Virus record (IMG/VR): IMGVR_UViG_3300028800_000003
Coordinates: 1 to 64,000 of that record
From: a virus
Length of the DNA: 64,000 bases
Direction: 5' to 3' (one strand)
The notes beneath the pieces are model-generated. The model worked only from the letters and a program-made list of their open reading frames with translations. It was not told the origin of the DNA and did no database searches. The translations under genes were made by a program, and so were the position numbers. Of the stretch, positions 34,104 to 46,996 are shown in pieces. Every line of letters begins with the position of its first letter. Positions within the stretch are counted from its first letter, which is position 1.

Positions 34104-34460
34104 GTGCCTTTCTTCGCGCCAGCACGAGTCCGTCGCAGCCGCATCATCGCCACGGCATCGAGCCCGCTTGTCCTGTCTATCGGACTGAGCGCGGATTTGA
34201 CTGTCAGGTTGAACGCGGCGTCAGGCCGCGTCGTGCTTGCTGGCTTTGATCGCAATGTGTTGCGGCTGCGGCGTGCCCGCAGCAATGACACGGCGATCCT
34301 GCGCACATTCCAAATCACCAAGGAACGCTACGGCCTCAACGTGCGGTGCATGGCGCTGCCGCGCGGCGTCGTCGTGCCAGAGGGACGCCTGATGTTGGCG
34401 CACCGCTGGCACGGCGATGTTTTGCTGATCGATCTGACACGTATTCAAGGATCACCGTGA
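34104..34460 (+). CDS. Hypothetical protein
   Basis: First ORF after the promoter, coupled to Gp157. Confidence 0.5.
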   Translation: MPFFAPARVRRSRIIATASSPLVLSIGLSADLTVRLNAASGRVVLAGFDRNVLRLRRARSNDTAILRTFQITKERYGLNVRCMALPRGVVVPEGRLMLAHRWHGDVLLIDLTRIQGSP

Positions 34461-35176
34461 TGAATGAACGTCCAGACCAATTGCATATGGCGGTTGAAGC
34501 CGCGCGCACCCTCCGCGGCGAGATCGCGAAGCTGATCGTTGCTGACAAGGTCGAAGCCGGCGAGATCGGCCCCGAAGACGCGCAAACTATCCAAGACACC
34601 TTCGACGGCGAAACCACGCTGGAGATCGAACTGGCGCGTGCAATCGAGGCCGAAGACGACGACACAATCCTGGTCACCGGCATCACCACGCGCATCAACG
34701 AACTGACAAACCGGCGCGACCGCATCAAAAAGCGCATCGCCGCACGCCGCGGCCTGATCGAACAGGCGATGACGGTTGCCGAATGGCCGAAGCATGAAAC
34801 GCCGCTCGGCACGTTGTCGATGGCAAAATCCCCAGACACCGTTGAGGTCGACGACGAGGCGTCGATCCCGTCGCAATTCTGGAAGCCGGCCGATCCGGTG
34901 CTCGACCGAAAAGGTCTCGGCGATTCGCTCAAGACTTTTCACAAGTCGGTGCAACACGCCAGTGGCATCAAGGATGTTGGCGAGCGCGCCAGCGCCTTGC
35001 TCGATCTGGCGCGGCTACTGCCGCAACAGCATCAGGACATCGTCACGAAGGCGCAAGGCATCAATGATCATGCCGAGCGCGCCGATGCACTGGCCTCGAT
35101 CCTCAACCGATGCTCGCCGGTTCAGGGCGCCCACCTCGATCTTGGCGGCAAGCATCTCGTTATTCGCCGCAAATAA
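34460..35176 (+). CDS. Siphovirus Gp157-like protein with a helical insertion
   Basis: DTFDGET...TP.GTLS...DEASIPSQFWK..DP.LDRK...VQGAHL..G..LVIR. Confidence 0.8.
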   Translation: MNERPDQLHMAVEAARTLRGEIAKLIVADKVEAGEIGPEDAQTIQDTFDGETTLEIELARAIEAEDDDTILVTGITTRINELTNRRDRIKKRIAARRGLIEQAMTVAEWPKHETPLGTLSMAKSPDTVEVDDEASIPSQFWKPADPVLDRKGLGDSLKTFHKSVQHASGIKDVGERASALLDLARLLPQQHQDIVTKAQGINDHAERADALASILNRCSPVQGAHLDLGGKHLVIRRK

Positions 35177-37469: not shown

Positions 37470-38200
37470 CTAAAAAGGGCTCTGAATTCCCGCCGCTCCT
37501 GATGGAGCGCGTCGCCAGGAAAATCGGCAACCAGACCTTCATCGGCTGGGTGCCGGCCGACCCAGTAAGCGCCGAGCGCATTTCCGAGCGCTACCGCGTC
37601 GGCGCCCAAGTCAATTTCACCACCTGGGAGGCGCGCGATCCGCGCAAGCTGCGCCTCTACTGGGCAATCCTGCAAGAGTGCGTCGCCAACGGCGAGAAAT
37701 ACGGCCGCGCCGAAGACCTGCACAACGCAGTCAAGATCGCGCTCGGCTATAAGCGCGAAATCCGCCTGCTCAATGTCGGCGAAACGTCATCGCTATTGAT
37801 GTCGCTTGGCGTCGTGCTCAACAAGATTCGCATGGTCTCGGAGAACAGCGACACCATTTTCGGCAAGCTGATCCGACCGTTGGTGAAACAGGCTTTCGAG
37901 ATCGCCGAGAAGGTCGGCGGCACGGTGAGCGACACCATCATCCTGCCGGGCTCGATCGCACTCGACAAGATGGACGAAGGCGAGTTCCGCATTTTCTTCG
38001 ACCGCGCAATGAACGAATTGCGTCGGGCTGGCTATCCCATCGATGAAATCATGGAAGCCAGCAAACAAAAACTCGCCCGAACTCGGGCGAGACAGACCCC
38101 TCCCCTCAATTACGGAGACAGCAACTATGGGCGAAGCCAAACGCCGCCGCGAGAAGATCGCGGAGTTAAAGACCCAGTCAGTAAAGAAGCAGCGGCATAA
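37466..38200 (+). CDS. DUF1367-like protein
   Basis: R....RLYWAIL...LH..VKI..G...PGSIA.DKMDEGEF..FF. Confidence 0.7.
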   Translation: MTKKGSEFPPLLMERVARKIGNQTFIGWVPADPVSAERISERYRVGAQVNFTTWEARDPRKLRLYWAILQECVANGEKYGRAEDLHNAVKIALGYKREIRLLNVGETSSLLMSLGVVLNKIRMVSENSDTIFGKLIRPLVKQAFEIAEKVGGTVSDTIILPGSIALDKMDEGEFRIFFDRAMNELRRAGYPIDEIMEASKQKLARTRARQTPPLNYGDSNYGRSQTPPREDRGVKDPVSKEAAA

Positions 38201-39059
38201 ACTGCGGCTGATGCCGGTCACGACACAGACCCAGCATCACTTCAAGAATCTGGCCGCCCGCAGCGAGGCGGATTTGAATGCCGGCCTGCCAGAGCGTTCC
38301 GCGTTCGCCTCACGCATCGAATATCGTCGCGCGCTGCATCTCTTTAATCCGGCCGTCGGCGCCGATCCGAAGCTGACCAAACAGATTCCAATCAAGGTCC
38401 GCGCTCATGCGTGGCATCCGCGTCCGCTCGACAAGCCGCCAGGCGCGATCCAACCGCTCGTCCTCGTTCCCGGCCGCAAGCTCGATCCCGATGAGCGGGT
38501 CATTCATCTCCAGGCCGTTGCCGGGTTTGCCTCTGCCGATCCGAAGCGACACCAGCAGGCGCATAATAAGATGCTCCGCATGTTGGACGTGCCGTGCGGC
38601 TTTCGCACGCCGTCTGCCAAGGCGAAGAACTGGCGCAGCACGTCGCTGATCGAACAGGCCTCGATCCGCGCCGGTCTCGCACCGGAGCGCGCGTTTGAAC
38701 CGTCGGCACGCGGTTTGAAAAAGCAGGAAGCCACACAACAGACCAAGGCGCTGATCCACCTGGAACGCCTGATGCGTGACAACGAAGCCCGCGCCATCCA
38801 GGCGCGCAATGATGATCAGAAAGCCAAGTGGTTTGTCGGCAAGGTCATGGCCGCCATGGAGGGCAGCATTAGCCATGAGTGGCTGGAGTCGATCGTGCCT
38901 GAGAAACTGACAGCATTCTACACCCGCCGCTTCAAATACATGAACGCTCCGCGTCGCGCGCGTTACGAATTGTTGCTTGCCGATGCCAAGGCGCGCCAGC
39001 GCGGCGAAAATCTCGACGGTTCGCCGCGGCGCGAGACGATCATGCGGGAAGCTGCGTGA
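38127..39059 (+). CDS. Hypothetical basic protein starting MGEAKRR
   Basis: GGAG RBS; long ORF. Confidence 0.65.
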   Translation: MGEAKRRREKIAELKTQSVKKQRHKLRLMPVTTQTQHHFKNLAARSEADLNAGLPERSAFASRIEYRRALHLFNPAVGADPKLTKQIPIKVRAHAWHPRPLDKPPGAIQPLVLVPGRKLDPDERVIHLQAVAGFASADPKRHQQAHNKMLRMLDVPCGFRTPSAKAKNWRSTSLIEQASIRAGLAPERAFEPSARGLKKQEATQQTKALIHLERLMRDNEARAIQARNDDQKAKWFVGKVMAAMEGSISHEWLESIVPEKLTAFYTRRFKYMNAPRRARYELLLADAKARQRGENLDGSPRRETIMREAA

Positions 39060-39286
39060 CCACGTTCATCACCATTAATAAGCACGTCATTGCGGCCAAT
39101 GCCAAGCATGGCCGTAATGACCCGCCGATCCGCGTCGCCAAGAGCAAAAACGGCAAGGCCGTCTATGCCCGCGGCGTGAAGATCAACGGACCCTCCGAGC
39201 TGATAAGCGGCGACGGCAAACCGGTCCTGAAATGCGGAGCGCGCATTGCGCTTGTTACCGACGCCGATGTCGAGGTGATCGCGTGA
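39056..39286 (+). CDS. Conserved small phage protein
   Basis: I.INKHVI..NAKHG...P...GP...KP.L.CGAR. Confidence 0.75.
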   Translation: MTTFITINKHVIAANAKHGRNDPPIRVAKSKNGKAVYARGVKINGPSELISGDGKPVLKCGARIALVTDADVEVIA

Positions 39287-39645
39287 GAACGATCATCCTC
39301 GGCAATAACGGCCGCTACGAAACGCAAGTGTCTGACGAGGACTATGCGTACCTCGTCCAGTGGCGATGGCAATACAAGCTGTCATCTAAAAGGTATCAAG
39401 GCAGCGCCGACAAGGGCGTCTACGCAAAGCGCACGACGACGGTCAACGGCCGCAAGATCACGTTGCTGATGTCGCATGTGATCCTGGAGCGCATGGGCAA
39501 GCCGCGCCCAGGACCCGATTACGATGCCGACCACGGCGACGATCATTCGCTCAACAATCAGCGCCACAATCTCGGCTGGGTTCACAAGACGCCCAACAGA
39601 GGCAAGGCCTCCAACCGCTCCTGCTACTACGCGGAGGCGGCATGA
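39283..39645 (+). CDS. HNH endonuclease
   Basis: VSDEDY..L.QWRW...YA.R...MSH.I...DH.D..SLNNQRHNL. Confidence 0.85.
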   Translation: MRTIILGNNGRYETQVSDEDYAYLVQWRWQYKLSSKRYQGSADKGVYAKRTTTVNGRKITLLMSHVILERMGKPRPGPDYDADHGDDHSLNNQRHNLGWVHKTPNRGKASNRSCYYAEAA

Positions 39646-39817
39646 CGATCGTGAACCCACTCGACATACAATGCGCTCACCGAGCACACATCAACGATAG
39701 TGTCCAGTGCGACGGAAAAATCTATCAGATCGTAGGAGTTCTACAATACCCAGACTTTCTGGCCGTCGAATGGCCATGGTGGAGATATGCGTTTCGGTTC
39801 TTGCGAAAGGTTCTCCG

Positions 39818-40357
39818 GTGATTCTGAAACCTGGAACCTTCAACGTCAATGAGTACCGCAAGGCAATTCCTGTGTGGGTGAAGCTGCAAGCGTTGATCAA
39901 TTCAATCATTCAGCGCGGCGAACTGCCGCTGAATGATGGCAAGCCGCTCGATGCCCGCGATCTGCAATTCGATCACTGCCCAGCCCTGGTTGATCGGCCA
40001 TACGATACCGTGGCTGGCGATTTCATTCCACAGCAGAACGACCCCGAATTCATCGTCCCGTTGCGCAAGCGCACGCATCTGCAAAAGACAACAGGCCGCA
40101 AGGAGGATGCCGAGCGGACAGTGACGACGCGCGGCAGCGATGTCGGCGAAGCGGCGCGCACGCGGCACATTCAGGACAGCGAGACCATCCACCAGGCGAA
40201 GATGTTGCACCGCGTGGACCCGGATGCGGCACGGCGTCTGCTCGGCAGCGTGCGGCAGAAGACCCGCCTGCGGCCGAAACGCAAGATCGCCAGCCGCGGC
40301 TTCGGCAATCAACATCGTCCCATGCAATCGAGGAAGCGCAACCGTGGCCGGAGTTAG
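39818..40357 (+). CDS. HNH-like protein
   Basis: QFDHCPAL...NDP.FI.PL...H.QKT; GTGA-coupled start. Confidence 0.7.
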   Translation: MILKPGTFNVNEYRKAIPVWVKLQALINSIIQRGELPLNDGKPLDARDLQFDHCPALVDRPYDTVAGDFIPQQNDPEFIVPLRKRTHLQKTTGRKEDAERTVTTRGSDVGEAARTRHIQDSETIHQAKMLHRVDPDAARRLLGSVRQKTRLRPKRKIASRGFGNQHRPMQSRKRNRGRS

Positions 40358-40580
40358 GAACAATCCATGTGTCGAGGCGATCGTTAAGACGCTGCTCGAT
40401 GCCGGCATAAGGCCCGAGGCGCCAGAGGTCACGAAGGGCTGCCACGTCAGGGTGCGCTGGCAGGCGAACGGCAACAAGCGCCAGTATCACACAGGGGCCT
40501 CGCCATCCGACTGGCGAGCCCCGAGGAAGGCGGCATCAGACGTGCGCCGCATGTTGCGCGAAGACGGCTTAGCTCTATAA
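40344..40580 (+). CDS. HicA-fold-like small protein (SPSDWR motif)
   Basis: KGCHVRVRW...GASPSDWRA......VRR. Confidence 0.6.
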   Translation: MAGVRNNPCVEAIVKTLLDAGIRPEAPEVTKGCHVRVRWQANGNKRQYHTGASPSDWRAPRKAASDVRRMLREDGLAL

Positions 40581-40581
40581 A

Positions 40582-40640
40582 AATAACCGGTTATATCTCT
40601 TGACAACCCGCATGTATAACCGCATCTGAGAACCGCGGCA
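40582..40640 (+). promoter_or_regulatory. Promoter of the Tas-like operon with multiple AACCGC/ACCCGC motifs
   Basis: ATAACCGGTTAT palindrome, then TTGACA (40600)-N17-CATCTG. Confidence 0.6.
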
Positions 40641-40662
40641 ATAAACATCGGAGTCAGCCAAG

Positions 40663-41196
40663 ATGAGCCTCACAGAAAATACCGAGCCACGTCGTCGTCG
40701 CCAAAGCCGCCGACGTAACCCAGAGACGCTTGGGGAGTTGCTGGTTTCGCTTCATCAACAATATCCGCGAGCGACCGAGACCGAACTAAAATCCATGCTC
40801 CGCGAGAATGGCAAGGAACGTCCGCAACTGGTCGACGAAGCCTTGGATTTCTGGTCGTCGCTCAATTACCGCAAGCTGATCGTCGCTCCCAATCCTGCCG
40901 GTCAGACATCGCGACCGCAACCGCGAGAGAACATCGAGGGCAGCGCCCAGGCTGCGCGCGTCACCATCCAAACGATTTTCGATACTTTCATGATCGGCGG
41001 CAAGCCGGTCGGCGAATACACGACGCAAGAAGCCATCGGCGTCGGACGCACAAACATCCGCCATGGCTACATTCTTCTGCGCATGGCGCGCGTCGTCGCC
41101 AACCCCGATCCGAATGCCAAGCTGCGCAACATCGTGAAGCTCAACGAAGCGCAGCGCATCATCAAACAAGCGATCGAGGAATCGAATGTCGCGTAA
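40663..41196 (+). CDS. Hypothetical protein, putative partner of the Tas-like gene
   Basis: GGAG RBS; overlaps the start of the Nop-domain gene by 11 nt. Confidence 0.8.
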   Translation: MSLTENTEPRRRRQSRRRNPETLGELLVSLHQQYPRATETELKSMLRENGKERPQLVDEALDFWSSLNYRKLIVAPNPAGQTSRPQPRENIEGSAQAARVTIQTIFDTFMIGGKPVGEYTTQEAIGVGRTNIRHGYILLRMARVVANPDPNAKLRNIVKLNEAQRIIKQAIEESNVA

Positions 41197-42394
41197 GCCA
41201 ACGAAATTGCGAGCGTGCGGTCACCCTGTGTCTTCCCGAAAGAGGCCAAAATCGTCGTCCCGCGCGCTCGCATCCAAAACCGCCTCCGATGACCATTTCA
41301 GGATTGCCCGAAAGGCCGACAACACCCTGTCTTCGGGGGCGGCCACCATTGCAGATGTCGATGATCATGGTTTTATTGTCGCATGCGACCAATCCCAATG
41401 TATCTCAACATCTGCATCCAATTCCGCAGACGATGATCGGTCAATCCGTGCCAATCATGGCCAGCCACAATTTATCTCGTCTGCGGACCTCAAGAAGCGC
41501 ATTGGCGTCATTCATGCGCATTGGCGCAATGCGGTGTTCGCTCGCAAGCAACGCATCCGCATCGGCAACACACTGAGTGCTTTCCTGCGAACTCAACTCG
41601 GCTGGTCGCTCGATAAGAGCGAGAAAGAACGCGAGAAGATCGCGAAACAAGCCGCAAAAATGATCGCCGATGGCGGTGGCGAATGGGCAGAATTTGTTGT
41701 CTCGACAGAGATTTCCATGGCTCCTTGGCAGGACATCGAGTCTCGCCATATCAAGGCGATGGAGAAAATAGCCATCGAATTTCCGGTCTGGTGCGATTTC
41801 GGCAAGCCGGTTCGAGGATTCGGATTGGCATCCTTTGCCAAGATTGTCGCTATGGCCGGCGATCTGTCGCAGTATCCGACGGTCGGCCACTTGCAGAAAC
41901 GTCTTGGAATATCCGTTGTTGACGGTGTCCGTCAGGGCAACCCAGGGAAAGGCGCGACCGCCGACGATTGGATTCGCCATGGCTACAAGCGAACCAACCG
42001 CGCGGAAATCTGGCAGATCGGGGCATCGTTGATAAAGGCTCAGGTCCGCGCTCAGAAGGACGCTGACGGCAAGAAATGCGGCGACAGTCTCGCCGTCGGC
42101 CGTTATGGCGCGATCTATCTGGGTCGCAAGAAACATGAACTGGCGCGGGGCCTCACCCTAAAGCACGCCGACAATCGCGCCAAGCGATACATGGAGAAGT
42201 GTCTGATTCGTGATCTATGGGCGGCATGGCGTCAAGTCATGTCGCTCGGCGCCTTGGTTGATCAGAATGCCAGTGTCGAACAGACCAGTGTTAATTTATC
42301 ACCCAAGGCGCACCCTATTACAGATTTCTATGATCATGGAGAGCGCATCCGAAAGGATCATGGATTACTGTGCGCGTCATACCCCAACGGCTAG
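41186..42394 (+). CDS. IS110/Nop-domain RNA-binding protein without a RuvC or HNH domain (TasA-like)
   Basis: Coiled coil followed by VRGFGLASFAKIVAMAGDLSQYPTVGHLQKRLG, GY....RAEIWQIGASLIK and HADNRAKRYMEK.LIRDLW; no DEDD N-terminal domain; GAGGA RBS. Confidence 0.8.
   Translation: MSRKPTKLRACGHPVSSRKRPKSSSRALASKTASDDHFRIARKADNTLSSGAATIADVDDHGFIVACDQSQCISTSASNSADDDRSIRANHGQPQFISSADLKKRIGVIHAHWRNAVFARKQRIRIGNTLSAFLRTQLGWSLDKSEKEREKIAKQAAKMIADGGGEWAEFVVSTEISMAPWQDIESRHIKAMEKIAIEFPVWCDFGKPVRGFGLASFAKIVAMAGDLSQYPTVGHLQKRLGISVVDGVRQGNPGKGATADDWIRHGYKRTNRAEIWQIGASLIKAQVRAQKDADGKKCGDSLAVGRYGAIYLGRKKHELARGLTLKHADNRAKRYMEKCLIRDLWAAWRQVMSLGALVDQNASVEQTSVNLSPKAHPITDFYDHGERIRKDHGLLCASYPNG
41208..41487 (+). 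ncRNA. TIGR-like stem-loop guide array, four dual-spacer units, inside the 5' part of the Tas-like ORF
   Basis: Units 41208-41272, 41280-41342, 41350-41416 and 41423-41487, each outer stem/YCR-N9-TK/hairpin/CCR-N9-TV/outer stem. Confidence 0.8.
42249..42381 (+). ncRNA. Two further TIGR-like units, one degenerate, inside the 3' part of the Tas-like ORF
   Basis: 42249-42311 fits the unit pattern exactly; 42329-42381 fits partially. Confidence 0.65.
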
Positions 42395-42397
42395 AGG

Positions 42398-42949
42398 TCA
42401 CGACGGCGGTAGCGCCGGTTCGCACACTCGCGAGAAGATATAGCGAAGCGAACGGACCAACGACCTTTCATCAGAATCTGGAATCGGTACTGTCACCAAA
42501 TCCTGATGACATTCCTGATGACCAAAGATGAAATCACAGACTGTGTCAGGATAGAAGCCTTTGACGACGATCCGCATTGGGCGCACTTGAAAGTCCTGCG
42601 TCAGATGGTCGAAGGCAATCGTTGATATTGGGTTGCCCGGTAATTCTCCGTGATACGGCCGCAGCCGATAGGTGCATGGCGTATTCTCGACGTGCTCAAT
42701 GAGCCAGTCGAATTTCTTCTCTGGGCACGAATGAGCATAGCAGCTTGCCACCCCGGTGACTCTTGCGCCGTCGAGCGGCTTTGCAGAGCTTGATGCAGTA
42801 AATGTGTCGAGACGACTGAGCGGCGCATAACTGCGAATGAAGACATTCGCAATCGCTTCAATTCCCGCATCTTCTGAGGGAATTGCCGGCGGCGACCAGC
42901 CGCCCAAGGTTGCGGTGAGTGAAATTATTGCCCATTGCCAGAAGCGCAT
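42398..42949 (-). CDS. Secreted Cys-containing protein (moron-like)
   Basis: Signal-peptide-like N-terminus; opposite strand to its neighbours; lower GC. Confidence 0.65.
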   Translation of the reverse strand: MRFWQWAIISLTATLGGWSPPAIPSEDAGIEAIANVFIRSYAPLSRLDTFTASSSAKPLDGARVTGVASCYAHSCPEKKFDWLIEHVENTPCTYRLRPYHGELPGNPISTIAFDHLTQDFQVRPMRIVVKGFYPDTVCDFIFGHQECHQDLVTVPIPDSDERSLVRSLRYIFSRVCEPALPPS

Positions 42950-43037
42950 GAGTTTCCTGTCTCATTCCGCCCTACCCAGATCATAGTCAGTCAACGGCAA
43001 TCAGCGCAACCGCCTGATCTGCGCGGTTAAATACCCC

Positions 43038-43066
43038 TTGCAAACCGCACGTGACGCGGTTATATA
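43038..43066 (+). promoter_or_regulatory. Promoter with an AACCGC...GCGGTT inverted motif in its spacer
   Basis: TTGCAA-N17-TATATA. Confidence 0.65.
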
Positions 43067-43074
43067 CGGGTGGC

Positions 43075-43300
43075 AGTTAGTGGGGATCGACGAGGCGGGC
43101 GGCTCATTGGAGGCAGTGGCCGCCCGCCAAATCGGTTCCCGAAACGAAAACGCGCCCCAGATCGCTACGGCGGGAGAGCACTCACCGGCTCTAACTCAAA
43201 GCCCGTCGTGCGGTTTGAGACACCCAAAATTGGGCGCGTTTGGCCACCGGACATAAGTCGCCGCGGTTTTGTGGAACCGTCTCGCTTCCGGTGGCCCCCA
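43075..43300 (+). ncRNA. Highly structured non-coding leader or sRNA
   Basis: Stems GGCGGGCGGC/GCCGCCCGCC, AAACGCGCCC/GGGCGCGTTT and GGCCACCGGA/TCCGGTGGCC. Confidence 0.55.
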
Positions 43301-43326
43301 CCAATTCAAAAGGGGCGTGCCGCGCG

Positions 43327-44319
43327 ATGCTGTTTACGGTTATCGATACCGAAACAACCGGGACCAATCCCGAGAACGATGCCCTGATCGACATCGCCGC
43401 CATCGATGTCGAAAATGGCATTGTCAGCGACAAGCCGCGCATTTCTTTCATCAAGCCGCCGATCCCGATCCCGCCAGAAGCGTCGGCCGTGCATCACATT
43501 GTTGATGCCGATGTGGCGCAGGCGCCGCCAGCACGCGAGGCCGTGCCGCTGGTGCTGATACCGGATCGGCCGGCGATCTACGTCGCGCACAAGGCAGACT
43601 TTGAGTACGGCTTCCTGAAAAGCTACTTGCCGGCCGGCTCCACTTGGCTCTGCACCTGGAGGGCGGCTTTGCGCGTCTACCCGAACGCGCCGAATCACAA
43701 ACTCCAGACGCTCCGTTATTTCCTCAACCTGCCAGTCGATCGCGCCATCGCCGACTATGCGCACCGCGCGATGCCGGATGCCTACGTGGCCGCCTATTTG
43801 TTACTCGACCTGCTGACCAAGGCGTCTGTCGAAGACATGCTCGCCTGGACGCGCGAGCCCCCGCGCCTGCCGTTTTGCCCGCTCAATCCGCACCGCGGCA
43901 AGCCCTGGTCTCAGGTGCCCGTCGATTTCCTGATGTGGATCGTCGGCCTGGAGAAACAAAAAGACCGGGACATGGACCCGGACATCATCTGGAACGCGCG
44001 GCTGGAATTGGACCGCCTCGCCATGGCGCAACGCGCGGCGAAGCAAACCGAACGCGACGCCAAAAACGAACTGATCGAAACGGAACGCGAGGCCTACGCC
44101 AAGCTGTTCAAGCAAATTCTCGCCAATCCAGACACCCAGCCGAAGACGGTTGCGGACCTGGAGAACTGGTGGAAGGGCGAGGCCGAGAGCCGCACCAAGT
44201 GGAACATCATCAAAGGCGACCCGCTCTATAGCGAGCTGGCGAAAGCCTGCGCCGACTACAAGAAAACCATCGTTCAACAACAACCGGCAGCGCAGACCAA
44301 TGAGCAAGTCGCAGCATAG
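43327..44319 (+). CDS. Exodeoxyribonuclease X-like DEDDh exonuclease
   Basis: VIDTETTG, VAHKADFE, HRAMPDAY; C-terminal HRGKPWSQVP.DFL.W. Confidence 0.9.
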   Translation: MLFTVIDTETTGTNPENDALIDIAAIDVENGIVSDKPRISFIKPPIPIPPEASAVHHIVDADVAQAPPAREAVPLVLIPDRPAIYVAHKADFEYGFLKSYLPAGSTWLCTWRAALRVYPNAPNHKLQTLRYFLNLPVDRAIADYAHRAMPDAYVAAYLLLDLLTKASVEDMLAWTREPPRLPFCPLNPHRGKPWSQVPVDFLMWIVGLEKQKDRDMDPDIIWNARLELDRLAMAQRAAKQTERDAKNELIETEREAYAKLFKQILANPDTQPKTVADLENWWKGEAESRTKWNIIKGDPLYSELAKACADYKKTIVQQQPAAQTNEQVAA

Positions 44320-44524
44320 CACAGTCGATCAACCACATTTTGTTTGGTGGCGCGGCACTGGCGGAAAGCCGGAACCGCAGAAATGGCAAGGCCTCGACTA
44401 CGGAATCTCCAATTGGAAATTTCCCTACGTCATCGCCGCCTATCCGCTGACGCCTGACGAATCCAAACAGTCGTTGGCTTCGCTGGCGGTTCGCTATCCA
44501 CAACCTGTGAGTGAAAAGCAATGA
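44300..44524 (+). CDS. Hypothetical protein
   Basis: Coupled ORF starting MSKSQHS. Confidence 0.5.
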   Translation: MSKSQHSTVDQPHFVWWRGTGGKPEPQKWQGLDYGISNWKFPYVIAAYPLTPDESKQSLASLAVRYPQPVSEKQ

Positions 44525-44865
44525 ACCCGGTTCGCGATATTTTGCACCAAAGATTCCCGCACTGCTTTGCTGATCGTGGCCAGCCAAAGCGTCCGCTCGC
44601 CATCGGCATCAAGGCTGAGATCGTGAGCCGATGCCCCGATCTGCGCGGCTTCATCGACGCGGCGCTCCGCGATTACACGGGCGGCCCAACTTATCACAAC
44701 GCCTGCTTCATTGGCGCACCGCGCATCAATCTCGATGGCGAGATCGCCGGTCAGGTAACGCCGAAGCACTCCGCGCATCACGCGCGCCGTCTGCACCACC
44801 TGCAACAGAAATGGAAACGCGAGGATGCCAAACGATCTGCCGATCCTGCTTGTCCATCTGTTTGA
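44521..44865 (+). CDS. ProQ/FinO-domain RNA chaperone
   Basis: FPHCF....RPLAIGI...ALRDYT....Y.......RINLDG..AG.VT..H. Confidence 0.88.
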   Translation: MNPVRDILHQRFPHCFADRGQPKRPLAIGIKAEIVSRCPDLRGFIDAALRDYTGGPTYHNACFIGAPRINLDGEIAGQVTPKHSAHHARRLHHLQQKWKREDAKRSADPACPSV

Positions 44866-45007
44866 TGCTGAAACAGGCGAGGTCAAGTGGCGTCCCAAGG
44901 CCGGCGGACGATGGAAGAACGCCAAGAGTGTTTACGACGCCTGCCAACAAGCCGACGCCGTGATGTCTGAACCCCGAGAAATCGAATACGTCGAAAGGAT
45001 GAAATAA
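44825..45007 (+). CDS. Hypothetical protein
   Basis: GAGGA RBS. Confidence 0.45.
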   Translation: MPNDLPILLVHLFDAETGEVKWRPKAGGRWKNAKSVYDACQQADAVMSEPREIEYVERMK

Positions 45008-45013
45008 GCTGCT

Positions 45014-46996
45014 ATGACCACCGTTGTTACGAATAACGATTACACTGGCCAGCCCTGGGACGGTTTGTTGTCCGGTACGCAATGGGCTACCGACAATCTC
45101 ACTTTCAGTTTCCCGACCGATGCCGCCGATTACGATTTCGGGTACATCCAAGGGGCAGGCGCTCCATCGGATAATTTCCAGCCGCTTAGTGCAGCCGAGC
45201 AAACCGCGGTGCTCAATGTCCTGAACGACTATGCCGCGGTCAGCAATCTGACGTTTACTCAGATCACCGAAACCACCGACACGCATGCCAACCTGCGCGA
45301 GGCGCAGTCGTCGGATGCCGGCGCCGCAATGACATTCGCGCCAAACTCGCAGTTCAATGATTATCCGTTGAGCGCGGACTCCTGGTACGAGCCGACTGGT
45401 TTCAGCGACTATGGGGCTTTGGTTTCTGATCCTGTGCTCGGCGGCTACGGCTATCTCGCCTTCACACACGAAATCGGCATTGCGCTCGGGCTCAATGACG
45501 ACGTGCAGGGCAATGACCTGCCGGCGTCCATGGATGCGATGCAGAATTCCGTGGAGTCGTATCGCTCCTATATCGGCGGCCCCACCGATCAGGGTTGGAG
45601 CAACGCAACGTGGGGGTATGCCACGTCGCCGATGCAGGATGACATCGCGGCCATCCAGCAGATGTACGGTGCGAATTTCAGCGGCATCGGAACGTCGGTC
45701 ACGTATTCCTGGAATCAAAACACCGGCGAGGAATCGATCAACGGCGTCGGCCAAGGCGTGCCGGGCGGTAATGCGATCTTCTCCACCGTCTGGGATCAAG
45801 GCGCCACCACGACCTACGACCTATCGAACTATTCGACCAACGAGGTTGTCGATCTGCTGCCGGGAGCGTGGAGCACGTTCGATACGGCGCAGCTCGCCAA
45901 TCTCGGCAACGGCAATGTGGCTCCCGGCAACGTCGCCAACGCCCTTGAATATGATGGCAACACCTCGTCCGACGTGACGCATGTCATCGGCGGCTCTGGC
46001 CATAACCTCATCATCGGCAACAATGCCGGCGATACGATCTACGGCGGCTCGAACGGCGGCAACATCATCGTGGCCGGAGCAGGCAGCAACACGATCGACG
46101 GCGGCGCTGGCGGCGACAACACCTTGGTCCTCCCCGGCAGCTTCATCGATTACCAGATATCCGACTCAAACGGCGTTCTCCAAATCGGCTCGAACCAAGT
46201 CACCGACGTGCAGGACATCCAGTTCGGTGCCGAGACGGTCAGCGCCCATGACATCGTCAATGCAGTCAGCGTGCAAGGCGGGACGATGGATGCCGGCTTC
46301 GGCAACTTCTCCGGCGTCGCTGGCGAGAATGGCGACATGCTGCTGCGCAACGGCGCTGGCGTGCTCACAATCTACGACGTGAGCAACAACACCGTGACCG
46401 GCTCATCCAACGTCGGGCAAATCGGCTTCAACATGCAGGTGCTCGGCTACGGAGATTTCTCCGGCCGCTCCGGCGAGACCGATATGCTGATGCAGGATAC
46501 CGGCAGCGGCGCCATGGAGGTCTACGACTTCACCGACAACACCCTCACTGGCTACGCCTCGATGGGGCAGGTCGGCACAGAGTGGAAAGTCCTCGGCTTC
46601 GGTGACTTCTCCAGCAATCCCGGCGAGACCGATATGCTGATGCAGGATAGCAACAACGGTGCCTTGGAATATTACGACATCGCCGGCAACACGATCACTG
46701 CTGCCGGCGGGATGGGACAAGTCGGCCTGGAATGGTCGCTGGTCGGGTTCAGCCCCGTCAACGGCGGCACGACCGACATGCTCATGACCGATAAGTCCAC
46801 CGGCGCCATGGAGATGTATGGCATCGCCAACAACACCATCGTATCGGCGCAACCGTGGTTCGGTCAGGAGGGCGATCAACTGGTACAGGCGATGGCAGCA
46901 TTTGCCGCGCCAAGCGGCCCGGCCTTGTCCAATCCGACCCACGACCCTGTCATCCAGCAACAGCCGGCGCCATTCGCTGTAGGCAAGGCGATCTGA
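45014..46996 (+). CDS. Serralysin-like (M10B) protein with RTX-like and FG-GAP-like repeats; degenerate Zn site
   Basis: LTFSFP, HEIGIALGLND (canonical HEIGHALGLxH), PMQDDIAAIQQMYG, TVWD.G, GGxGxN repeats, GDFS..SGETDML repeats. Confidence 0.85.
   Translation: MTTVVTNNDYTGQPWDGLLSGTQWATDNLTFSFPTDAADYDFGYIQGAGAPSDNFQPLSAAEQTAVLNVLNDYAAVSNLTFTQITETTDTHANLREAQSSDAGAAMTFAPNSQFNDYPLSADSWYEPTGFSDYGALVSDPVLGGYGYLAFTHEIGIALGLNDDVQGNDLPASMDAMQNSVESYRSYIGGPTDQGWSNATWGYATSPMQDDIAAIQQMYGANFSGIGTSVTYSWNQNTGEESINGVGQGVPGGNAIFSTVWDQGATTTYDLSNYSTNEVVDLLPGAWSTFDTAQLANLGNGNVAPGNVANALEYDGNTSSDVTHVIGGSGHNLIIGNNAGDTIYGGSNGGNIIVAGAGSNTIDGGAGGDNTLVLPGSFIDYQISDSNGVLQIGSNQVTDVQDIQFGAETVSAHDIVNAVSVQGGTMDAGFGNFSGVAGENGDMLLRNGAGVLTIYDVSNNTVTGSSNVGQIGFNMQVLGYGDFSGRSGETDMLMQDTGSGAMEVYDFTDNTLTGYASMGQVGTEWKVLGFGDFSSNPGETDMLMQDSNNGALEYYDIAGNTITAAGGMGQVGLEWSLVGFSPVNGGTTDMLMTDKSTGAMEMYGIANNTIVSAQPWFGQEGDQLVQAMAAFAAPSGPALSNPTHDPVIQQQPAPFAVGKAI

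Follow-up and report, generated by a model that had tools for sequence, protein, structure and literature searches.

The DNA examined here, called the window throughout, is the first 64 kb of a complete virus record of 119,739 base pairs (bp) with direct terminal repeats (IMG/VR record IMGVR_UViG_3300028800_000003). The element at issue, U5, is a stem-loop unit in the 3' tail of an open reading frame (ORF) that encodes a Nop-domain protein. We conclude, with a probability of about 0.88, that U5 is a working-type unit of a stem-loop TIGR array belonging to this phage-encoded protein, a TasA with the Nop domain alone. Four other units, U1 to U4, are found in the 5' part of the same ORF, and a degenerate one, U6, follows U5. 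Direct support comes from the grammar of the unit, its fold with covariation, the homology of the protein, the linkage of units and gene on the same strand across related phages, and the in-frame placement of the units.

Published passages of Faure et al. (2025, PMC12045711) describe TIGR arrays as carrying two 9-nucleotide (nt) spacers per unit; the CCA that precedes a spacer is box C, and the UG that follows it is box D. In some clades, according to the same passages, the edge repeats are replaced by variable stem-loop palindromes; one such array belongs to a TasA, and the TasA of a Peromyscus leucopus gut contig has 13 stem-loop units. In the passages available from a preprint (Xu et al. 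2026, 10.64898/2026.09.09.750476), TasA is presented as an RNA-guided repressor of transcription, and many TasA proteins are said to have long disordered N-termini. The same passages report tigRNAs embedded in the coding sequence of BlTasA of Bifidobacterium longum, as well as intragenic stem-loop tigRNAs at both ends of tas, 5' and 3'; a hairpin may also form from the loop that separates the spacers, and in the stem-loop type, a CUU motif at the base of the stem is the processing site.

U5 and the array around it

The letters, position and parsing of U5 proved to be those of the original prediction, an earlier reading of the bare sequence that had singled out the unit, and its grammar is the one published for tigRNAs (Table 1). 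The units had been taken for dual-spacer guides, and this reading stands: the succession of box C, a 9-nt spacer, and box D, then a loop, then the three elements once more, is complete in U5 and recurs in 133 related units. The arms of U5 form an inverted repeat (42249-42262 with 42298-42311; 14 nt, 93% complementary, 35 nt between), and the + strand RNA folds at -26.3 kcal/mol, with a z-score (z) of -4.73 that none of 200 shuffles equalled. Four inverted repeats of one design were found here (U1, U3, U4, and U5), with arms of 11-14 nt lying 35-43 nt apart, and U2 (41280-41342) makes a fifth.

We trained a first covariance model, R1, on U3 and U4 alone, which is a stricter test than training on all of U1-U4, and searched both strands of the entire 64-kb window with it, unfiltered. 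Only the two training units scored above U5, which was the best match outside the training set (28.1 bits, E 1.2e-5); a model of the U1-U4 type does, thus, place U5 above background, the point on which the original prediction had staked itself in advance. U2, which is not a training unit either, scored 16.4 bits with R1 and 21.8 bits (E 0.006) with R2, a model built from U3, U4, and U5.

The boxes at the ends of U5 are joined by a U-A pair (42262/42298), common to U3 (41365/41402) and U4 (41437/41474), and the inner pair between box D' and box C' stays G-C. The units are also regularly spaced: the first bases of box C in U1-U4 (41221, 41293, 41365, and 41437) follow an exact 72-nt, i.e., 24-codon, period, and the box C of U5, at 42262, is in the same codon phase.

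U6 has the letters given in the original prediction, and the degenerate form ascribed to it was borne out by a fold z of +0.32 (115 of 200 shuffles fold as well) and by the lack of a proper terminal stem: the 5-bp stem is set off by about six or seven extra bases, and a UG or UA box D is not in place. Its first UCA, at 42334, lies exactly another 72 nt past the box C of U5, and a second UCA (box C') follows 24 nt on, at 42358, the same distance as in U3 and U4. The inner grammar is likewise that of a unit, with UGA-UCA, 9 nt, a loop hairpin UCC-GAAA-GGA like that of U1 and U2, the second UCA, and 9 nt. The sequence GATCATGGA occurs twice in it (42332 and 42356), and the run ATGATCATGG is common to U6 and U3. 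U6 was absent from the 44 window matches of R1 at E<=10; when its stretch was searched alone, only the apical hairpin with box C' (42347-42361) scored, at 2.8 bits. The original prediction had called U6 a decaying unit, which the 72-nt register and the inner grammar make plausible; the covariance model misses U6, however, and we lean towards, without insisting on, a decayed last unit.

The Nop-domain protein and related loci

The AlphaFold2 model of the ORF product, made with the family alignment, has a confident helical core, with blocks in residues 95-350 mostly above a pLDDT of 94, and predicted disorder (pLDDT below 50) in both tails (residues 1-90 and 371-402); the last predicted helix extends to residue 366 with dropping confidence. 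Residues 1-90 are encoded by the unit array itself. A Foldseek search of the PDB returned TasR (9mty, E 1.1e-6) and several TasH complexes at the top, followed by the IS110-family proteins ISCro4 and IS621. With VIA-align against 48,161 chains, the best Z was 16.4 for TasR (9mty_B; 190 aligned residues, root-mean-square deviation 2.7), then 15.1 for TasH (21kl_A) and 12.9 for ISCro4, the latter for model residues 102-352 and the RNA-binding domain only; the next match fell to 8.6. The family profile gave a sole match among PDB sequences, TaTasR (9mty_A, E 3.9e-17), over the Nop domain. These structural and profile matches to solved TIGR-Tas proteins bear out the earlier description of the core as a Nop domain.

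No Pfam family matched the ORF at E<=1, Transposase_20 and DEDD_Tnp_IS110 included; the N-terminal DEDD RuvC-like domain and the Tnp domain of an IS110 recombinase were, thus, not found by Pfam at this threshold, and the N-terminus is predicted to be disordered. From the missing Pfam match and the disorder of residues 1-90 and 371-402, it follows that the protein has no nuclease domain. A protein with only the Nop domain that is homologous to the solved TasR and TasH is a Tas protein of the type called TasA in the papers, which, judged by sequence and predicted structure, is what the ORF encodes. The search of 5.8 billion proteins gave 28 at E<=0.001, query included, with a Pfam domain in none; in their alignment, the conserved core spans about residues 105-350 and ends in RDLWAAWR, with N- and C-terminal tails that vary in length and sequence. 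The gene is present in a single copy in the 119,739-bp phage genome. As PHROGs labels the protein of 41186-42391 "transposase" (phrog_4285, E 1.6e-13), automatic phage annotation probably mislabels tasA genes as IS110-type transposases.

A scan of viral contigs gave 61 loci encoding relatives; removal of the repeats L022, L023, L032, L035, and L048 left 56 non-duplicate loci. Metagenome scans with P0001 and P0002 for the nearest homologue yielded no locus. In the related loci, all 24 R2 matches at E<=1 are on the tas strand. The same holds for all 204 matches at E<=1 in the 61 loci for R3, a model built from 18 aligned units (four from this phage and fourteen from nine related loci); these matches sit beside the gene, upstream and downstream, mostly in tandem.

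In the 18-unit alignment, which was fitted to the model and so favours pairing, 95.6% of the stem cells pair against 65.9% in shuffles, 15 of the 19 pairs change on both sides, and covariation scores 0.618, where shuffles give 0.168 and none of 500 reaches the observed value. When the partners were slid by one to three columns, pairing was just 28-51%; together with the freely varying stem sequences, this control indicates that the pairing signal is real despite the model-fitted alignment. We also aligned the best 150 of the 204 R3 matches, again fitted to the model, and kept 133 units after dropping duplicate loci. Of these 133, 104 have CCA as box C and 101 have it as box C', and UG stands at box D' in 110 and at box D in 114; in 132, each of the two spacers measures 9 nt. 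The pair that the opening base of box C makes with the G of box D is C-G in 130 units and U-G in three. The U-A of U3, U4, and U5 amounts to a compensatory change, which fits pairing between these two positions. Stem wobbles in the 133 units (57 G-U cells against 34 A-C cells) favour a + strand RNA.

Where the units stand relative to the core was counted over the 56 non-duplicate loci, on the basis of the best 150 of the 204 matches. At least one unit is present in 37 loci, and units occur on both sides of the core in 17, so the original claim that guides bracket the Nop core holds for this phage and beyond it. Whole units lie within the 3' tail of the ORF in 14 loci (only there in 11, also past the stop in three); the stop falls inside a unit in three others, 3' units come solely after the stop in ten, and no 3' unit is among the matches listed in 29. 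The tail past codon 348 has a median of 22 residues, with 11 or fewer in 20 loci, 12-30 in 25, and more than 30 in 11. To the question raised with the original prediction, whether homologues end at the RDLW.AW motif or carry tails made of units, the answer is that both kinds occur: 20 of the 56 ORFs stop no more than 11 codons from AWR, and 14 have a tail that holds at least one whole unit. U5 had also been placed right after the last conserved helix, which is nearly the case: it begins 20 nt past 42229, the last base of codon 348 (the R of AWR). In 15 of the 56 loci, the start of a unit and the end of codon 348 are no more than 12 nt apart, the commonest start being 3 nt ahead of that point; in such loci (e.g., L002, L003, L005, L006, L007, L015, L043, and L062), the 5' arm, often GTGGCG..., doubles as the conserved W-R codons.

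Both U5 and U6 are read through to the stop at 42394, as had been predicted. In-frame start codons before residue 117 are limited to residues 1, 8, and 15; a protein with the whole coiled coil must, therefore, be read through U1-U4. When the window and the related loci are taken together, neighbouring units in a frame open to tas have their box C's a multiple of three nucleotides apart in 25 of 28 pairs, and other neighbours in 18 of 32; over the related loci as a whole, this holds for 40 of 57 adjacent pairs against an expected one third, with 66, 69, 72, and 75 nt the commonest distances. Box C falls at a codon start in none of the 62 units inside ORFs. Read-through of U5 and U6 yields a C-terminal tail predicted to be disordered, the sequence of which is probably a by-product of the RNA, in an array kept in frame phase; the peptide of this tail need not matter even though the phase is kept.

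Table 1. Features of the tasA locus in coordinates of the window.
Feature	Position	Strand	Basis or remark
tasA-like ORF, 402 amino acids	41186..42394	+	ATG preceded by GAGGA at 41176-41180, five bases upstream
U1, divergent unit: 13-bp stem, box C UCA, box C' CCA, poor box D's (UU, UC)	41208..41272	+	inverted repeat, fold z -4.57
U2, stem-loop tigRNA unit, CCA-N9-UG-loop-CCG-N9-UG	41280..41342	+	fold z -2.57, covariance models
U3, stem-loop tigRNA unit, UCA-N9-UG-loop-CCA-N9-UA	41350..41416	+	inverted repeat, fold z -3.44
U4, stem-loop tigRNA unit, UCG-N9-UG-loop-CCA-N9-UA	41423..41487	+	inverted repeat, fold z -5.40
Conserved Nop-domain core, residues 95-348, ends RDLWAAWR	41468..42229	+	coiled coil and C-terminal domain, no nuclease domain
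U5, stem-loop tigRNA unit in the 3' tail of the ORF, codons 355-376	42249..42311	+	inverted repeat, fold z -4.73, 28.1 bits
U5 5' stem arm, 13 nt	42249..42261	+	
U5 box C, UCA (family consensus CCA)	42262..42264	+	
U5 spacer A, 9 nt	42265..42273	+	
U5 box D', UG	42274..42275	+	
U5 loop between spacers	42276..42284	+	small hairpin with flanking G and C
U5 box C', CCA	42285..42287	+	
U5 spacer B, 9 nt	42288..42296	+	
U5 box D, UA	42297..42298	+	U-A pair with box C, where the family has C-G
U5 3' stem arm, 13 nt	42299..42311	+	
U6, probable vestigial unit	42329..42381	+	72-nt register and inner grammar; no proper terminal stem or box D

How U5 would work and what else it could be

By analogy with the published systems, expression, processing, binding by TasA, DNA targeting, and repression would run as follows. 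The tasA transcript would carry U1-U4 in its 5' part and U5 with the vestige U6 in its 3' part, and each unit would be freed as a hairpin RNA of about 65 nt. The stem would join box C and box D, a TasA dimer would bind both box C/D pairs, and the two 9-nt spacers would pair with opposite strands of a single 18-bp DNA site. As it lacks a nuclease domain, the complex would be expected to bind DNA and block transcription without cutting.

In order to look for such sites, we assumed that a target consists of spacer A followed by the reverse complement of spacer B, an arrangement deduced from the 8-nt 3' overhangs and the C-5 rule in the published passages, and used the swapped order as a control. 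Against the genome of the phage itself, the spacer pairs gave at best 14-15 of 18 matching positions in the expected and the control arrangement alike, which is the level of chance. The U5 pattern was found twice in viral contigs against four times for the control, and its 22 matches in genome contigs are scattered over unrelated taxa, both again at chance level.

Several observations weigh against U5 being a working unit of a TasA array. No target was found for any spacer pair, U5 being the only unit searched for outside the phage, and none of the sequencing runs listed as containing the stretch is an RNA run. The terminal U-A pair of U5 is found in none of the 133 related units, where C-G (130) and U-G (3) occur; binding by this TasA is, thus, assumed. 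U1 scores 15.3-17.1 bits in the covariance models (15.3 with R1), at or below background, and U6 is absent from the 33 window matches of the family model R3 at E<=5. The bias among the stem wobbles is modest. Of 46 downstream units, 36 are open in the tas frame and 37 in one other frame, so read-through alone is no proof that the tail is selected as protein.

Some of these points would suit a retired unit, i.e., one that is still shaped like a tigRNA but has dropped out of binding and use, and survives merely within the 3' end of the gene. U5 does stand apart from the main array and beside the clearly degraded U6, it has no target found and its box C/D pair is not the consensus one. Against this, every element of U5 is intact, its stem ranks with the best of U1-U5, the U-A pair is one that U3 and U4 have as well, and 15 of the 56 non-duplicate loci likewise have a unit where the core ends; we, therefore, consider retirement improbable. 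Given that it is a strong hairpin at the 3' end of an ORF, one could also regard U5 not as a guide but as an element of the tasA messenger RNA (mRNA), for instance one that stabilises the 3' end, makes translation pause, or acts as an attenuator. However, no U-tract follows the hairpin, a terminator scan of 40300-43300 found no terminator-like site on the + strand, and a plain stabilising hairpin has no need of the box C, 9 nt, box D grammar that occurs twice in the inner loops. The same units also form tandem arrays upstream, in this locus and in related ones, which makes an mRNA element very improbable.

The last possibility is that the palindromes work at the DNA level, for instance as sites where the IS110-like protein binds or recombines DNA. 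The relationship of the protein to IS110 recombinases and the "transposase" label of PHROGs speak for it, and palindromes do function on either strand. Yet all 204 matches lie on the gene strand, the protein lacks a recognisable RuvC or DEDD domain, the stems vary freely while their pairing is kept, G-U cells outnumber A-C cells, and the solved Tas complexes, going by the titles of the structures, bind RNA of such grammar; we hold this to be the least probable of all these explanations, with hardly any weight left to it. A working-type tigRNA unit is, thus, our preferred reading of U5.

Kin and setting of the locus

The locus is closest to the stem-loop TIGR-TasA systems (PlTasA and BlTasA), with which it shares a solo Nop-domain protein, variable palindromic stems, two 9-nt spacers between box C and box D, a hairpin-capable loop, and units on the same strand upstream of, downstream of, and inside the disordered parts of the tas ORF. 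Going by the published descriptions, it is set apart by a terminal pair that is U-A (UCA...UA) in three of the five units and not C-G, and by a short array of five units and a vestige with its exact 72-nt (24-codon) period. TaTasR (9mty) and SpTasH (9vzx, 21kl, and others) have a homologous Nop domain and guides built on the same logic of box C, 9-nt spacer, and box D; they differ in having RuvC or HNH domains and 36-nt tigRNAs from dual-repeat arrays, whereas the phage TasA has no nuclease and long stem-loop guides.

The relationship extends to the IS110 recombinases with their bridge RNA (IS621, 8wt9; ISCro4, 9t56), which have a related RNA-binding domain (Z 12.9) and an RNA that, like a tigRNA, reads both DNA strands with internal loops. 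Unlike them, the phage locus has neither a DEDD/RuvC domain nor element ends, and it holds many independent units instead of one two-loop RNA. With the archaeal and eukaryotic box C/D small ribonucleoproteins (Nop5/Nop56/58, L7Ae, and fibrillarin), the locus shares the combination of a Nop-domain protein and a two-spacer guide, and GAUGA does precede box C in U2-U4. The difference is that the CUGA of a box C/D RNA follows spacer B in no unit; the units do not fit the K-turn pattern of box C RUGAUGA with box D CUGA, and an Rfam scan of 38000-46000 returned nothing relevant, with no match to a C/D family at E<=10.

The DNA runs containing the stretch are rhizosphere metagenomes. Identical pieces of it were found in four other DNA runs with zero differences, so there is no strain variation to read. 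Upstream of tasA lies an HNH endonuclease-like ORF (39232-39645, +; phrog_959, E 8.9e-6), and downstream a DnaQ/RNase T-type exonuclease (43240-44319, +; PF00929, E 4.8e-19; phrog_192). An ORF of 177 amino acids (40663-41196) overlaps the start of tasA; it is without a family match and was not flagged as ParB-like by Pfam. No sigma-70-like site was found in 40300-43300.

Just 3' of the tasA stop, we observed an inverted repeat (42468-42481 with 42496-42509) and, shortly after, a tandem TCCTGATGAC at 42501 and 42513. The stretch 42511-42553 was tried as a unit and rejected, with a 5.4-bit model match and a single spacer-like gap in GACCA...UGUC. The features of 42468-42553 may be debris of more units or unrelated; they sit within a minus-strand ORF (42398-42949) without a family match. 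Another candidate, a lone hairpin on the minus strand 7 kb from tasA (34408-34461; GAUCC, 9 nt, UG, loop, UCA), scored 18 bits (E 0.013) with R1 and 14.4 bits (E 0.58) with R3; it was set aside for its second spacer, which is too short, and for having no tas nearby, and the match is probably due to chance. Further units were not found elsewhere in the phage genome, where the best matches had E-values of 0.3 (R3) and 1.4 (R2).

The locus is, in kind, not new: it is a stem-loop TIGR-TasA, an RNA-guided DNA-binding system described in 2025-2026, and as 3'-intragenic tigRNAs have already been described, it adds an example and changes nothing about the kind of system. What it brings to TIGR-TasA is a complete 120-kb rhizosphere phage with guides flanking the Nop core within one reading frame, and its U-A box C/D pair supports the view that box C, through its first base, pairs with the second base of box D. 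The strict 24-codon unit period and the recurrent position of the first 3' unit at the last codons of the core are further details open to testing. We think it unlikely, though not remote, that the embedded units are dual-coded modules rather than passengers; the codon phase kept by the arrays of this TasA clade and the 3' units that begin within the W-R codons in many relatives would speak for it. If they were, excision of a guide would destroy the tasA message, the 5' units taking the start and U5 the stop, and guide output and TasA synthesis would compete for each transcript, a built-in dosage control.

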